From positions 1 through 10,718 of the IMG/VR virus record IMGVR_UViG_2541047968_000015: a DNA stretch of 10,718 nucleotides; one strand, given 5' to 3'. Positions 1,622 to 10,718 of this stretch are shown one piece after another. The DNA comes from a virus (lineage: Duplodnaviria; Heunggongvirae; Uroviricota; Caudoviricetes). The translations under genes and the position numbers were made by a program. A model generated the notes under the pieces. It did not search any database. It worked only from the letters and a program-made list of their open reading frames with translations, and was not told the origin of the DNA. The first letter of the stretch is position 1; each line of letters begins with the position of its first letter.

Positions 1622-1842
1622 GCCACACCTCCCAGACGCTTAAACATTTTTCCGGAGCAAAAGGCTATAAGCGGCATACTGACGCGGTAATTACGGCCCA
1701 GCGGTTCACAAATCACCTTCTGACATTCACGGTCAACCAGGCTAACACGTAGAACATGCCCTGCAGGCGTGGTGTACCACTGACCCGGACGAGGACAACG
1801 GAAAGTATGATTGGTAAACCGTTTGAAAATATTCCGGATCAT
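1618..1842 (-). CDS. Hypothetical small protein (74 aa)
   Basis: ORF whose ATG (1842-1840) overlaps the Rha-like stop (ATGA); coupled within the leftward operon. No family recognised. Confidence 0.5.
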   Translation of the reverse strand: MIRNIFKRFTNHTFRCPRPGQWYTTPAGHVLRVSLVDRECQKVICEPLGRNYRVSMPLIAFCSGKMFKRLGGVA

Positions 1843-2384
1843 TTGCGCCCCCTTACCTCTGAAGGGTTCAGCGACAAATTTATGAGACTGGCCAGTAGCG
1901 CCGCGTCGTTGATGCGGTCATACAGACTTACAGCCAGCGGGGATTCGGCTTTTGCCAACATGGGATAAAGCTGCTGCAGCCAGACCTTGTGGATTACCGA
2001 CAGGTGGGAGTAAAGCACGCTGGCGTTATCTGCGGCATCGCTCAGCGTGGATGGCTTTGAAAGCAGTTTTTCCATCTGGTTAAAGGCATTGATGTATGCC
2101 TCTTTGAACTGGGCAGCACGTTTACCCGTGAAACCCATAGCAAGAAACGCAAAGCCGTCGCGGGTTATTTGATAGCAAGGTAGTTTGCGGCCTGTGCAAT
2201 CGGTGTAATCACTCACCGAAAAATTGCGGGCAGTGAATGATGCGGAACATTCAAGCGTGCGGATCTTTTTCAGTACATCGTCATGACGTTTGGAGAAGAA
2301 GTTGGCAACAGCCAGGGATGAAGTAACAGCCTGACCATCAACGATGGCAATTTCAGGTTGAGTGAGGGTTGGGATCGTAGCCAT
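1839..2384 (-). CDS. rha: Phage regulatory protein Rha-like (pRha domain), 181 aa
   Basis: Internal ATG at 2384-2382 preceded by GGAGG with an 8-nt spacer. The protein starts MATIPTLTQPEIAIVDGQAVTSSLAVANFFSKRHDDVLKKIRTL ... YQITRDGFAFLAMGFTGKRAAQFKEAYINAFNQME, matching the Rha family signature (F.KRHD.VL..IR ... DGF.FL.MGFTGK.A..FKE.YI.AF). The ORF track merges it with a 201-codon upstream in-frame extension. Confidence 0.8.
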   Translation of the reverse strand: MATIPTLTQPEIAIVDGQAVTSSLAVANFFSKRHDDVLKKIRTLECSASFTARNFSVSDYTDCTGRKLPCYQITRDGFAFLAMGFTGKRAAQFKEAYINAFNQMEKLLSKPSTLSDAADNASVLYSHLSVIHKVWLQQLYPMLAKAESPLAVSLYDRINDAALLASLINLSLNPSEVRGRK

Positions 2385-2987
2385 GATGGCAGCCTCCGTA
2401 TGCAATGGATAACTTCCACCACCGGAAACGCCAATTTCGCTGGTGGTGAACTGAGCAGGGTTGGCGTAACCGGCGCATACGGAAACCGGCGCACCTTTCG
2501 GTGCCCCCACCCAGCCCACCATAATTTGGGTATAGCTGAGTTGTAGCAACAAAAAAGACGCTAACGCGCCAATTGTCGCCGTATGCAATTCCAGGACGCC
2601 AATCCCGACACCCGCTTTATAAGGTGCCTGAACAGTGTAACGTCCCGGAATGGCAGAATCAATGTGCTGGTGGTCCTTCACACTCAACAAAATCACGCCT
2701 GAATTTCCACAAAGGACTAAAGCACTCATGCTGGTAGTCTTTGCGAAGATAGATAACGCGCTGTGTTTCTGGCTCCCAACGAATAACATGGACATAAAGC
2801 CCTCTTCCGTCACGAAACCAGCGGTTAAGTTCCTGCACAACTCGCCCCCCACAGTCAGGTAAAGTTCTCTGTGGTTACTTACAGCCAGGTGATTTGGTAA
2901 TCTGCATTCATGCCGTAACAACAGGTGTTCAGCGACGCTGACCACCAGCTGTTGCGACAAACGGTTATTTGCCGTTAAACTATTCAT
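2385..2987 (-). other. In-frame open segment (201 codons) between the YdaT-like and Rha-like genes; coding status unresolved
   Basis: ATG at 2987-2985 overlaps the YdaT-like stop (ATGA) and the frame runs without a stop into the Rha ATG. The translated sequence is low in charged residues (about 11 percent), rich in S/L/A/G/V, and matches no family I recognise. Could be a real N-terminal domain, a separate or fused gene, or a fortuitously open frame. Confidence 0.3.
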
Positions 2988-3541
2988 GCGTTAGTTTCTC
3001 CACAACCAGAAGCAATCGACGCCACGACGCCCGGAGCTGCACACTCGCGGGCGTTACTATTTTCTGGAGCGCAGAAGATTTTGTAGACCAGTGCTGCATG
3101 CTCCTGGAGCTTCGAAATTGAGAGGTACAGCTCGTCGTTAATTGCTGTCTTCTCATGCGGTTCCACTACACCGTCTTCGATTGCTGAACGAATCTGTCTG
3201 GAATAACTGCCGATCTGTTCAATGACTTCCAGCAGACGCTGGTTAATATCGGCGTTGTCCACATCCTCGACGTCAGGAAGAGACACAAAGACGCCATTTG
3301 CAGACTGCGCCACAGCGTCAGCAATGAAGTGAGTTCCACCAGCACGTTGTAAAATCATTGCCCATCCCAGCGGGAAAATCTGATCGCCATCTGCACGAAG
3401 GCGGTTGAATAATGCGTTCTCTGTTACATCCAGCCACTCAGCAGCTTCAGCGTAACCCCCCGGCAACGCCGCGATAGTTTTTCTGACAGCTTTCACGTAC
3501 CACTCAGGCTGTTTTTCCACTTTCCAGTGATGATTACCCAC
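2984..3541 (-). CDS. CII-like / YdaT-like regulatory protein (185 aa)
   Basis: ORF with GTG start (3541-3539) preceded by GGAGG with a 6-nt spacer, overlapping the end of the cro-like gene. Its position directly after the cro-like gene matches lambda cII or Rac ydaT; the family assignment is by position and weak recollection only. Confidence 0.55.
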   Translation of the reverse strand: MGNHHWKVEKQPEWYVKAVRKTIAALPGGYAEAAEWLDVTENALFNRLRADGDQIFPLGWAMILQRAGGTHFIADAVAQSANGVFVSLPDVEDVDNADINQRLLEVIEQIGSYSRQIRSAIEDGVVEPHEKTAINDELYLSISKLQEHAALVYKIFCAPENSNARECAAPGVVASIASGCGETNA

Positions 3542-3794
3542 GGCTTACCTCCTGTTCCTGTGGTTTAAACCCATTCTGGTTTTGGCTAGATTGAAAACGT
3601 GCCGGATAAAGAATCTGCATTTCGCTGATTTCACCCTTAAAAAAATTGGCCAGACGTTCTGCAAGATCGATAGATGGAATTTGTTCCAGTCTTTCAATAC
3701 GACTCAGCGTCGCTGGATTGACCTGAACGCCCGCAGCAACATGCTGCAAAGTAAATCCGTGCGCCTTACGCACATTCCGTAATGGTGATTGCAT
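3534..3794 (-). CDS. cro: Cro-like HTH (XRE-family) transcriptional regulator, 86 aa
   Basis: ORF with ATG at 3794-3792 and GGAGG 5' of it. Helix-turn-helix motif (GFTLQHVAAGVQVNPATLSRIERLEQIPS). Divergent from the repressor gene across a 97-bp operator region. Confidence 0.8.
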   Translation of the reverse strand: MQSPLRNVRKAHGFTLQHVAAGVQVNPATLSRIERLEQIPSIDLAERLANFFKGEISEMQILYPARFQSSQNQNGFKPQEQEVSRG

Positions 3795-3891
3795 ATAACC
3801 TCCACATATTGCGTGATGAGCATATTATTTCACGCAAATATTTTGCGCAAGTTGATTTGCTTAACGCGCAATAAAGAAATGTAATAAACGC
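3795..3891. promoter_or_regulatory. Divergent immunity-region promoter/operator segment (PR-like for cro; cI promoter unresolved)
   Basis: Minus-strand promoter candidate: -35 TTGCGC (complement of 3845-3850), 17-nt spacer, -10 TAATAT (complement of 3822-3827). Inverted repeat TTGCGTGA-N13-TCACGCAA at 3809-3837 overlaps the -10 and start region. Palindrome TTGCGCAA at 3843-3850. A 15-bp TTGC-N7-GCAA site at 3857-3871. Confidence 0.6.
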
Positions 3892-4584
3892 ATGAACATA
3901 GGAAACCGAGTCAGACAACTTCGCCAGGCGAAGAACATGAAAATCGCCGATCTCGCTGAAGCAATAGGAGTGGATGCGGCGAATATCTCACGCCTGGAAA
4001 CAGGTAAGCAGAAACAATTCACTGAACAAGCCCTGAGTAATATTGCCAGGAGCTTAGGTGTTGATATTGCTGATCTCTTTACCTCAGACGTCAAAAGTAA
4101 TACTGTATGTAAAAACAGTATTAGTGAGGATGTTGCGCAGGTGAAGGATGTATTCCGTATTGAAATGCTGGATGTCAGTGCCAGTGCGGGAAATGGCCTT
4201 ATCCAGGGCGGTGATGTCATTGATGTGATTCATGCCATTGAATACAGAACTGATAATGCTGTATCGATGTTTGGTGGACGACCAGCAAATCACATTAAAG
4301 TTATCAACGTTCGTGGGGACAGTATGTGTCCAACCATTGAGCCAGGAGATCTCATCTTCGTTGATATCAGTATCAATCAGTTTGATGGGGATGGTATATA
4401 TGTATTTGGTTTTGATGATAAAATTTACGTCAAACGACTGCAAATGATACCTGATAAACTGCTGGTAATTTCTGATAATCAGATTTACCGCGAATGGGGA
4501 ATTACCAGCGAAAACGAACATCGGTTTATGGTCTTTGGAAAGGTCTTAATCAGTCAGTCACAAACCCTTAAGCGACACAATTAA
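3892..4584 (+). CDS. cI: cI-like prophage repressor, N-terminal HTH plus C-terminal S24 (LexA-like) peptidase domain, 230 aa
   Basis: N-terminal HTH (MKIADLAEAIGVDAANISRLETGKQ). C-terminal S24 signature with catalytic Ser in GDSM (VINVRGDSMCPTIEPGDLIFVD) and downstream Lys (IYVKRL). Divergent from the cro-like gene. Confidence 0.9.
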   Translation: MNIGNRVRQLRQAKNMKIADLAEAIGVDAANISRLETGKQKQFTEQALSNIARSLGVDIADLFTSDVKSNTVCKNSISEDVAQVKDVFRIEMLDVSASAGNGLIQGGDVIDVIHAIEYRTDNAVSMFGGRPANHIKVINVRGDSMCPTIEPGDLIFVDISINQFDGDGIYVFGFDDKIYVKRLQMIPDKLLVISDNQIYREWGITSENEHRFMVFGKVLISQSQTLKRHN

Positions 4585-4605
4585 CCCCCTACCTCAACAT
4601 CAATT

Positions 4606-4630
4606 AGCCACCAGAAGGTGGCTTTTCATT
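4606..4630 (+). terminator. Rho-independent terminator downstream of the repressor gene
   Basis: Perfect 7-bp stem AGCCACC (4606-4612) / GGTGGCT (4617-4623) with loop AGAA, followed by TTTCATT. Confidence 0.8.
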
Positions 4631-4640
4631 ACCCACCAAA

Positions 4641-4694
4641 TTGCATATCTCGCAATAAAAACACTTGCATAATGCGCAACTTCATTTTATCTTT
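4641..4694 (+). promoter_or_regulatory. PL-like operator pair and candidate rightward early promoter
   Basis: Two 15-bp TTGC-N7-GCAA sites (4641-4655 ttgcatatctcgcaa; 4665-4679 ttgcataatgcgcaa) share the half-site motif of the cro/cI intergenic sites. Candidate -35 TTGCAT (4665-4670) and weak -10 TATCTT (4688-4693) with a 17-nt spacer. Promoter hexamers are weak; the operators are the firmer observation. Confidence 0.45.
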
Positions 4695-5123
4695 CTTTCC
4701 AGACCTACAAACAAGGTACTAACAAAATTTGGTTGTAACACGGCGTATGGCACATGCGTCGTTAGCGGTCTGGGGACGTTAAAGGGGACAATCCACTCCT
4801 TGCTCGGGCAAACAAACCAGGTAGCCGGAATGTGCAAGTCAATGAGGATGCTGATAAGACGCCTAACCAGCGTGGCGATTCGGTTTGACGCCTGGGAAGA
4901 GACCAGGACGCAACGATGAGAGCATTTATGGAGCCGCGACAAAGTGTGGTGCCGTAACTGGCTAAGTGCTCTCAGCGTTGTGGTGAATGCGCAGGCTGAT
5001 GCGCGAAAGACATTGCAGCTATTGCGGAAAAGAGCTGTTCGGCGGGGCAATTAAACGCCCGTGAGAGTCTGAAATAACCGCAAGCCGGAGATCAGCACCG
5101 GTCACCACAACAGCCACTGCTTT

Positions 5124-5170
5124 GGCGGTACCAGTTTGTACACTTGCTTCCGGCTGGTACCGCTCTTTTT
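5124..5170 (+). terminator. Hairpin with T-tract (candidate intrinsic terminator or attenuator) in the leader of the rightward operon
   Basis: Perfect 10-bp inverted repeat GCGGTACCAG (5125-5134) / CTGGTACCGC (5154-5163) with a 19-nt loop, followed by TCTTTTT (5164-5170). The loop is long for a canonical terminator. Confidence 0.45.
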
Positions 5171-5259
5171 ACAAAACAGAGAAGAGCATCACCGGACGAC
5201 GGGCTCATAACCCAATCCATCCGGGCGGCTGCCACCGCAGGTGTTCTTCTCTGTTTTGT
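5171..5259. repeat. Perfect 15-bp inverted repeat with 59-bp spacer, immediately upstream of the RdgC-like RBS
   Basis: ACAAAACAGAGAAGA (5171-5185) and its exact reverse complement TCTTCTCTGTTTTGT (5245-5259). The left arm abuts the T-tract of the preceding hairpin; the right arm ends about 22 nt before the GAGGAAAA Shine-Dalgarno. Confidence 0.7.
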
Positions 5260-9404: not shown

Positions 9405-10718
9405 ATGGATAAAGTCAAATATCCAACAGGCGTCGAAAACCACGGCGGCACATTACGCATCTGGTTTAATTTTAAAGGTAAACGTGTCAGGGAAAATCTT
9501 GGTGTCCCTGACACTGCCAAGAACAGGAAGATCGCCGGGGAACTGCGGACATCGGTATGTTTTGCCATCCGCACAGGAAGCTTTGATTATGCTGCACAGT
9601 TCCCTGACTCCCCCAACCTTCAGGCTTTTGGGGTAAGTAAAAAAGAAATTACGGTGAAGGAACTTGAAGAAAAGTGGCTGGATCTGAAACGAATGGAAAT
9701 CTCTGCAAATGCATTCAATCGCTATGAATCCGTTGCAAGAACGATGGTTTCGAAAATTGGAGGCAGTAGACTGGTGTCATCGGTAACCAAAGAGGAATTG
9801 CTGTATATCAGGAAAGATTTGCTAACCGGGTATCAGAATTCAACGAAAAACAAAGCAGCAGCAAAAGGACGGAGCGTCGTTACTGTAAATTATTACATGA
9901 CGACAATCGCTGGAATGTTTCAGTTTGCTGCAGATCACGGTTACTTAGAAGCAAATCCCTTCCAGGGAATTAAGCCTCTTAAAAGAGCCAGGGCAGAGCC
10001 AGATCCGCTAACTCGTGACGAATTTATTCGCCTGATAGATGCTTGCCGACATCAGCAGACGAAAAACCTGTGGTCATTGGCTGTGTACACAGGAATGCGT
10101 CACGGTGAACTGGTCTCCCTGGCCTGGGAAGATATCGATCTGAAGGCAGGAACAATTACCATCAGGCGCAATTATACGAAACTTGGTGAGTTCACTCTAC
10201 CGAAAACTGAAGCAAGCACAAACAGGGTTGTGCACCTTATCCAGCCCGCTATCAGTGTCCTGAAAAATCAGGCTGAAATGACAAGACTGGGTAAGCAGTA
10301 CAACATCAAGGTGCAACTACGTGAATATGGACGTTCAGTGAACCATGAATGTACTTTCGTGTTTAACCCTCAAGTGGTTAGAAAAAGCGAACAGGTAGGT
10401 TTTGTCTACAAAGTCGATTCTGTAGGTGACTCATGGGAAACAGCCATTAAGCGTGCAGGGATCAGGCATCGAAAGGCATACCAGTCACGACACACTTATG
10501 CGTGCTGGTCATTATCTGCCGGAGCAAACCCAAGCTTCATTGCCAGCCAGATGGGCCATGCAAGTGCCCAGATGGTATTCAATGTATACGGAGCATGGAT
10601 GACTGACAGCAATGCAGAACAGATCGCAATGCTGAATCAGAAGCTGACAGATTATGTCCCAATGATGCCCCATAGTCACCAAAGTGACACCAGAGGCTTA
10701 TTAAAATCAGTAAGTTAA
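9405..10718 (+). CDS. int: Tyrosine site-specific integrase, IntR/Rac-type with N-terminal arm-binding domain (437 aa)
   Basis: GGAGGT 5 nt upstream of the ATG. N-terminus PTGVENHGGTLRIWFNFKGKRVRENLG is typical of the arm-type DNA-binding domain. C-terminal catalytic region has RHTYACWSL ... MGHASAQMVFNVYGAW with the Tyr nucleophile. The stop codon coincides with the window end. Confidence 0.9.
   Translation: MDKVKYPTGVENHGGTLRIWFNFKGKRVRENLGVPDTAKNRKIAGELRTSVCFAIRTGSFDYAAQFPDSPNLQAFGVSKKEITVKELEEKWLDLKRMEISANAFNRYESVARTMVSKIGGSRLVSSVTKEELLYIRKDLLTGYQNSTKNKAAAKGRSVVTVNYYMTTIAGMFQFAADHGYLEANPFQGIKPLKRARAEPDPLTRDEFIRLIDACRHQQTKNLWSLAVYTGMRHGELVSLAWEDIDLKAGTITIRRNYTKLGEFTLPKTEASTNRVVHLIQPAISVLKNQAEMTRLGKQYNIKVQLREYGRSVNHECTFVFNPQVVRKSEQVGFVYKVDSVGDSWETAIKRAGIRHRKAYQSRHTYACWSLSAGANPSFIASQMGHASAQMVFNVYGAWMTDSNAEQIAMLNQKLTDYVPMMPHSHQSDTRGLLKSVS

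Follow-up and report, generated by a model that had tools for sequence, protein, structure and literature searches.

Predicted 15-bp TTGC/GCAA operators on both sides of cI in a lambdoid prophage related to phage mEp460

The TTGC...GCAA palindromes that lie on both sides of the repressor gene of this prophage are, with a probability that we put at about 0.8, the operators of its CI protein in a lambda-type OR/OL switch of a widespread immunity type. This reading comes from a comparative analysis of the sequence of the window, by which we mean the whole stretch of 10,718 nucleotides, together with its relatives. The operator would be a 15-bp palindrome, TTGCG-N5-CGCAA, with TGC/GCA as its core and A or T as the outer base, and, by analogy with lambda, the same palindrome is probably also an operator of Cro.

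The window is the immunity and early region of a lambdoid prophage. It is about 99% identical to the lambdoid phage mEp460, with 99.2% identity over bases 3400-5200, a segment that also shares 91-98% identity with Stx2k- and Stx2a-converting phages, ECOR13 prophages and Shigella phage SfII. The sites are framed by the following genes and terminator:

1839-2987, minus strand: ORF of 382 aa, Rha/Ash antirepressor
2984-3541, minus strand: ORF, CII-like CP76/YmfL gene
3534-3794, minus strand: cro-like gene, 86 aa, Pfam HTH_3 (E 5.8e-10)
3892-4584, plus strand: cI repressor gene, 230 aa, N-terminal HTH and C-terminal S24 autopeptidase
4606-4623, plus strand: intrinsic terminator after cI (stem of 7 bp, then a run of T); the SfII annotation also has a terminator here
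rdgC through int at 9405, plus strand: early-left genes

Counterparts of the cro-like gene are annotated as Cro in SfII and in Stx2a phages, and the recognition helix of the product keeps the SR-E..Q core, the same as in CI. The cI product matches Peptidase_S24 (5.8e-19) and HTH_3, HTH_26 and HTH_31 in Pfam, and its sequence contains Ala99-Gly100 (A99-G100), Ser144 within GDSM and Lys181 within VKR; with this Ala-Gly site and Ser/Lys dyad, CI would belong to the LexA-like S24 type of self-cleaving repressors. Several records (mEp460, Stx2a_1447, 1720a-02 and phiNP) use an internal ATG at 3937, which would give a protein of 215 aa and drop HTH helix 1. Because the N-terminal 15 residues, comprising helix 1, are conserved in all relatives, we place the cI start at 3892.

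In lambda, a CI protein with an N-terminal HTH and a C-terminal S24 autopeptidase is encoded opposite a divergent cro, palindromic operators lie over PR and PRM, a second operator cluster follows cI and its terminator over the leftward early promoter, and the cI message made from PRM is leaderless. The window resembles lambda in its HTH and S24 domains of CI, in the divergent cro, in the gap of about 97 bp and in its back-to-back promoters, which would start roughly 77-82 bp apart; the predicted operators likewise overlap PR and PRM, the second cluster lies after the cI terminator at PL, and cI is probably leaderless. The 97-bp gap between the divergent genes is conserved in length and in its promoter hexamers (11 phages, 112 distinct sequences); a small divergent HTH gene and a short gap with back-to-back promoters of predicted start, as in a lambdoid switch, are both found here.

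The first-pass annotation had proposed that a single motif recurs in the cro/cI gap and after the cI terminator, and the strings on which it relied are all present: TTGCGTGA at 3809-3816 and TCACGCAA at 3830-3837 with 13 nt between them, the palindrome TTGCGCAA at 3843-3850, the TTGC-N7-GCAA sites TTGCTTAACGCGCAA (3857-3871), TTGCATATCTCGCAA (4641-4655) and TTGCATAATGCGCAA (4665-4679), and, on the minus strand, TTGCGC (3850-3845) and TAATAT (3827-3822) separated by a 17-nt spacer, a pair supported by the conservation of T-12, A-11 and T-7. Exact TTGC-N7-GCAA occurs four times in the window against 0.58 expected, a count that none of 200 shuffles reached. Three of these copies sit in two short non-coding stretches on either side of cI, and the fourth, at 2185, lies in coding DNA and has a poor weight-matrix score. 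A motif search over the full related phage mEp460 (44.5 kb) returned six copies against 1.55 expected, three of them flanking cI and three scattered singles. The one-mismatch class as a whole shows no enrichment in the window (12 against 8.4); it includes TTGCGTGATGAGCAT (3809-3823), a fourth site that had gone unrecognised as a unit, its left end having been matched instead to an arm further away. When a position weight matrix (PWM) built from relatives only was applied to the window and to the whole mEp460 genome, the same four 15-mers came out on top in both, at 4665 (20.8 bits), 4641 (19.0), 3857 (16.5) and 3809 (14.3), with the next-best 15-mer anywhere in either at 12.7 bits or less. By chance, 0.17 hits of at least 14 bits would be expected in the window and 0.76 across the mEp460 genome, against the four obtained.

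To follow the sites across relatives, we compared the cro-cI gap and the post-cI region of 11 annotated phages, whose CI DNA-binding domains are 38-100% identical to that of the window, and added about 240 IMG/VR contigs, scoring 112 distinct cro-cI gaps (88 distinct N-terminal domains) and 182 distinct post-cI regions. Among the 11 phages, the 15-mers of the gap begin at -83/-84 (-82 in Morganella) and at -35/-36 from the cI ATG, and the first of these sites is found in 111 of the 112 distinct gaps and the second in all 112. Across these gaps information content is maximal on the TTGCG and CGCA(A/T) arms and low in the 5-bp centres; it is low over 3824-3842, a stretch that includes the TCACGCAA arm, and maximal again on TTGCGCAAGTTG and on the T..AAT six bases 5' of the cI ATG. 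Beyond cI, an adjacent pair of sites lies 40-65 bp past the stop codon in 180 of the 182 distinct regions, with centres 20-24 bp apart. Among repressors at least 98% identical to one another, the variation between 39 post-cI haplotypes is confined to the centres of the sites, the spacer between them and the flanks. The proposal that the shared motif is the signature of OR and OL is thus supported by fixed positions, an arm-invariant footprint, uniqueness in the genome and covariation with the repressor HTH, to which we return below.

The elements of the cro-cI gap are these:

3809-3823, no strand: predicted operator OR1, TTGCGTGATGAGCAT, PWM 14.3-15.1 bits, over the PR -10 edge and start
3822-3827, minus strand: predicted PR -10, TAATAT, with conservation peaks at T-12, A-11 and T-7 in 112 sequences
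3850-3845 (-35, TTGCGC) and 3827-3822 (-10, TAATAT), minus strand: predicted PR, 17-nt spacer, start about 3815
3830-3837, no strand: TCACGCAA, lineage-specific, within the PR spacer, not part of a conserved operator
3836-3850, no strand: degenerate OR2 position, AAATATTTTGCGCAA, with the CGCAA/TTGCG core alone left
3843-3856, no strand: near-invariant block TTGCGCAAGTTGAT, maximal information content (112 gaps), holding the PR -35 TTGCGC
3857-3871, no strand: predicted operator OR3, TTGCTTAACGCGCAA, PWM 16.5-16.8 bits, over the predicted cI promoter -35
3857-3862 (-35, TTGCTT) and 3880-3885 (-10, TGTAAT), plus strand: predicted PRM, 17-nt spacer, start at the A of the ATG, 3892
3879-3893, no strand: weak operator-like 15-mer ATGTAATAAACGCAT, PWM 6.6-9.4 bits, over the PRM -10, start and ATG

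Several predicted copies of the palindrome therefore lie in the gap over both promoters, as in lambdoid phages generally. OR1 spans about -8 to +7 of the putative PR, its final AT being also part of the -10, and CI bound there would cover the -10 edge and the start and block rightward, cro-ward lytic transcription. OR3 has invariant arms and a variable centre among relatives. The PRM -10 (TGTAAT) lies 6 nt 5' of the cI ATG, every group preserves the T..AAT and its spacing from the ATG, and the hexamer carries a non-canonical G at -11; a Shine-Dalgarno sequence before cI is absent in all relatives, and the cI mRNA is probably leaderless, with PRM starting at the A of the ATG. A start at that position, together with OR3 over the PRM -35, implies that occupancy of OR3 should shut cI down, as would happen when Cro, or CI in excess, covers the -35 of this maintenance promoter. 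A generic promoter scan listed none of PR, PRM and PL, because their -35 hexamers match at just three of six positions.

In lambda the operators are of 17 bp, three in each cluster at 23-24 bp, and OR2 is placed at -42 of PRM for positive autoregulation. The cro-cI gap of the window has no third canonical operator, the position at -56 scoring -2.6 bits and the lambda-like position at -42 scoring 2.2 bits. With this low score for the 15-mer centred at -42 of PRM, lambda-style activation is not evident, and OR3 should act as a repressing site for cI. The 15-mer ATGTAATAAACGCAT, which lies 22 bp centre to centre from OR3, fits a relaxed pattern in 147 of 239 loci, and its standing as an operator is uncertain.

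As a separate observation, positions 3807-3873 form an imperfect dyad with arms of 32 nt, 72% complementary and centred at 3840, which spans the whole cro-cI control region of this lineage. Within it OR3 is the mirror image of OR1, and around the centre two half-sites, CGCAA (3833-3837) and TTGCG (3843-3847), point outward.

Three elements were predicted in the post-cI region:

4641-4655, no strand: predicted operator OL2, TTGCATATCTCGCAA, PWM 18.2-19.0 bits, member of the adjacent pair present in 180 of 182 regions
4665-4679, no strand: predicted operator OL1, TTGCATAATGCGCAA, PWM 20.2-20.8 bits, the top score in both the window and the whole mEp460 genome
4665-4670 (-35, TTGCAT) and 4688-4693 (-10, TATCTT), plus strand: predicted PL, 17-nt spacer, start about 4700

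OL1 and OL2 are 24 bp apart, and the first 6 nt of OL1 would be the PL -35. The centres of OR3 and OL1 lie at about -28 of PRM and PL, respectively, and that of OL2 at about -52. TATCTT is found 17 nt past the TTGCxx of the proximal site in seven of eight annotated relatives and in 134 of the 180 distinct regions with an adjacent pair, and in ENT47670 the OL pair lies upstream of an N-like gene on the same strand. A second cluster of predicted operators is thus found beyond cI over an early-left promoter, again as in lambdoid phages; OL1 and OL2 would cover the -35 and upstream region of PL, which would drive the early-left operon towards rdgC and int. It counts against this model that PL would initially read about 450 nt of non-coding DNA. 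The ORFs in 4665-5235 have no match to any protein family, and according to one paper SfII, SfV and SfIV lack an N gene.

The non-coding stretch just downstream of the putative PL, 4727-4990 on the plus strand, is a conserved element in its own right, annotated in mEp460 as a minus-strand ORF of 122 aa. If it were a gene, this ORF (4682-5050) would run head-on into PL, and we rejected it as one: it belongs to no Pfam or PHROG family, and its "protein" matches are DNA-level homologues beside tRNA genes. Unannotated DNA homologues of 4727-4990, 73-98% identical, lie in P1, right after tRNA-Ile, and in phiv142-3, right before tRNA-Arg; further homologues occur in cdtI, Stx2c phages, SPN1S, Tyrion and RCS47. 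Six copies fold into a consensus with 45 pairs, 11 of which show compensatory double changes. ARAGORN found no tRNA in the stretch and Rfam gave no match even at E<=1, on which grounds a tRNA-encoding stretch was rejected, and 4727-4990 is a candidate for a structured RNA of a new type linked to phage tRNA genes.

A further copy of the palindrome lies within cro:

3759-3773, no strand: candidate intragenic operator GTGCGCCTTACGCAC, in cro codons 8-12, PWM 9.3 bits, about +50 from the predicted PR start

In 134 of 171 distinct relatives this position holds xTGCG-N5-CGCAx, in many of them as a perfect consensus operator. Third-position entropy over cro codons 7-30 ranges from 0.68 to 1.94 bits except at codons 8 and 11, with 0.11 bits each, which are fixed as TTG/GTG and TCG/GCG; these are the sole two third positions within the core arms, a coincidence with a chance of 1 in 276. 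The structure and promoter scan of the window also flagged the palindrome as a hairpin. We disfavour an RNA hairpin or terminator, given that the outer bases are not kept complementary and that the arms keep the operator's own sequence. The site is a probable fifth operator, judged by this pattern of constraint, about 50 bp downstream of the PR start. HK022 provides a precedent: a further CI operator, about 300 bp downstream of OR, adds to its immunity, and looping between OL and OR has been demonstrated (PMC8053113), whereas the present candidate lies about 50 bp past the PR start, inside cro.

Which protein would read these sites was addressed through the covariation of the arms with the repressor HTH. 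Every 15-mer upstream of cI with perfectly complementary 4-nt outer arms was listed, with no sequence presupposed. Repressors whose helix 3 starts with AAN, GAN or QAN are accompanied by TTGC arms in 119 of 120 distinct regions, (S/G)-D-VGN repressors (ENT47670, Yersinia and Morganella types) by ATGC/TTGC sites and none with ATGT/TTGT, and W-D-VGN repressors (Fels-1 type) by ATGT/TTGT sites and essentially none with xTGC; the 15-bp geometry is common to all three HTH types. This covariation constitutes the strongest in-silico evidence that the palindromes would be operators of the immunity repressor. CI and Cro are not distinguished by it, both genes being inherited together and sharing the SR-E..Q helix core.

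We take CI to be the probable binding protein. A different binder, be it Cro alone, the CII-like YmfL/CP76 protein, the Rha/Ash antirepressor or a host factor, seems improbable to us. Any co-inherited regulator, such as Cro, would covary with the CI HTH too, and the recognition-helix core of Cro is similar; yet the sites occur on both sides of cI at fixed distances from its start and stop codons and overlap each of the three promoters over which a prophage repressor needs control. Moreover, the CII-like and Rha genes vary or are absent in phages that keep the sites, and a host factor would not switch specificity with the phage repressor.

The first-pass annotation had described the operators in another way, as a heterogeneous set composed of a 29-bp inverted repeat, TTGCGTGA-N13-TCACGCAA, the 8-bp TTGCGCAA and the N7 sites, which would require a repressor that reads half-sites at variable spacing. 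All three elements exist, the whole gap is the 32-nt imperfect dyad centred at 3840, and the right arm is retained in the closest lineage (SfII, Stx2a_1447). That arm is nevertheless replaced by unrelated sequence in ST64B, Klebsiella, Eeyore and phiNP despite the same repressor type, and has low information content: its position holds TCATACAG, CCACGCTG or TGTGTAGT in the ST64B, Klebsiella and Eeyore phages. The conserved 15-mer at 3809-3823 fully accounts for the left arm, and one would not expect a rigid HTH dimer to recognise half-sites at spacings as different as -2, 7 and 21 bp, which leaves such a mixed set very improbable. The 29-bp repeat is therefore real as a sequence and does not hold as an operator unit, being unconserved beyond the closest relatives, with its left arm part of 3809-3823 and its right arm in the PR spacer. 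In the same way, TTGCGCAA is indeed a palindrome, and we read it instead as the PR -35 together with the half-site remnant of a third operator, which relatives retain intact. At this OR2 position, -56 from the cI ATG, many relatives have an operator of 12-15.5 bits, against -2.6 bits in the lineage of the window; the third OR operator, over the PR -35, would thus be intact in many relatives and decayed to a half-site here. The conservation of 3843-3856 beyond the need of a -35 hexamer is only partly explained.

Finally, that promoter elements alone are conserved, with TTGCxx as a -35 and the GCAA partners incidental, is hardly credible: the left halves of 3857-3871 and 4665-4679 and the TTGCGC at 3850-3845 do fall on -35 positions, but CGCAA is near-invariant in promoter spacers, where sigma-70 imposes no sequence, OR1 lies at a start site, OL2 upstream of a -35 and one copy in cro under synonymous-site constraint, and the arms change with the repressor type.

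If the palindromes are the operators of CI, the architecture is not a copy of lambda. The window has two strong predicted OR sites, two OL sites and one extra site in cro, and, unlike in the tripartite lambda clusters, the two OR sites are 48 bp apart with the middle one decayed. The predicted operator is of 15 bp (TTGCG-N5-CGCAA) and not 17 bp, and, in further contrast to lambda, there is the candidate site within cro and no N gene was recognised. Without a middle operator (-2.6 bits), tight repression of PR from one site would need some further, hypothetical aid, for instance from looping or from the site in cro. It is conceivable, as a tentative extension that we hold to be doubtful, that the switch is wired unlike that of lambda, with one full operator each on PR and PRM, negative-only autoregulation of a leaderless cI, a cro-embedded operator, and tight repression through cooperation, by looping or roadblock, of OR1, the intragenic site and the OL pair about 0.8 kb away, plus a natural series of three specificities (TTGCG, ATGCG and ATGTx) on one protein scaffold. 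Cooperativity and OL-OR looping may both be part of the switch.

The overall design is shared with lambda, 434, P22 and HK022, among which the CI of HK022 is the closest in sequence (43% identical over residues 19-228). HK022 shares with the window a palindrome of 5+5+5 layout, two copies of TGAACTTATGGTTCA being present in its cro-cI gap and one overlapping the cI ATG, and its OL-OR distance is about 700 bp, compared with about 800-850 bp in the window. The half-sites differ, HK022 having TGAAC (TGAAC-N5-GTTCA) where the window has TTGCG, and a search for WTGY-N7-RCAW in 5.5 kb of HK022 found none. HK022 also uses put RNA and Nun, for which no equivalent was identified in the window; Rfam is uninformative for a put-like RNA, because the put region of HK022 itself has no Rfam match either.

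The 434 repressor offers a second comparison, since CI has a short HTH of the Cro/C1 type and the proteins of solved structure that come nearest to it in sequence, at E about 2e-4, are a 434-derived design and ClgR; no solved structure of a close relative bound to DNA was found, this E value being that of the best match. The 434 operator is ACAA-N6-TTGT, with its centre read indirectly, and in the palindrome of the window the outer 4-5 bp are likewise conserved and the centre is loosely specified. This palindrome differs in length (15 bp against 14 bp) and in its bases, and the sequence similarity of the proteins is marginal.

The e14 element of E. coli K-12 (YmfK/YmfT) is a neighbouring lambdoid module with a YmfL-type CII-like gene in common and a similar gene order. 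Its YmfK is unrelated in the DNA-binding region, its palindromes are TGTAC...GTACA, and TTGC-N7-GCAA is absent from 8 kb of e14; with repressor and palindromes both different, we rejected e14 as the same immunity type. The predicted half-site matches neither that of HK022 nor that of e14, and is not known from lambda, 434 or P22. A 2025 paper describes the operator specificity of this repressor group as unknown, and our literature search found no published operator for mEp460, ST64B or SfII, nor a TTGC/GCAA operator.

Two side observations concern other elements. A conserved early-left leader element distinct from that at 4727-4990, AACAGGCAGGACGCCCACGAAGTAGCC...GATGATTCG, is common to e14 (at about 5090-5180), ST64B, SfII, Eeyore and phiNP despite their differing repressors, and follows PL in the latter four; its hairpin stem changes compensatorily (CCCGG/CCGGG, CCTGG/CCAGG, CCGGT/ACCGG), and no Rfam family was found for it. 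The other observation concerns the Rha/Ash ORF at 1839-2987 on the minus strand, in which Rfam detects a C4 antisense RNA (80.7 bits) and isrK (58.9 bits):

2439-2526 and 2551-2627, minus strand: Rfam RNA matches within the Pfam Phage_ASH region of the ORF

The same C4/isrK pair lies in sb41 of ST64B, and the layout resembles P1 immI and the Gifsy isrK control of an antirepressor. Either the 382-aa ORF is over-called or the C4 and isrK RNAs are embedded in coding sequence.

Altogether, this is an ordinary lambda-type switch, but one of an immunity type whose binding sites, here predicted, had not been described. The finding leaves the understanding of such switches unchanged, its less ordinary aspects being the decayed middle operator, the intragenic operator and the natural three-step specificity series. 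The immunity type is common: repressor relatives were found in at least 488 IMG/VR stretches, and it occurs in Stx2a- and Stx2k-converting E. coli phages, the Shigella serotype-converting phage SfII, Salmonella ST64B and Klebsiella prophages. For these phages, the predicted operator and promoter map should ease footprinting, reporter and induction-threshold work and would allow homo-immune and hetero-immune prophages to be predicted, and the family may offer orthogonal repressor/operator pairs with a traceable change of specificity.
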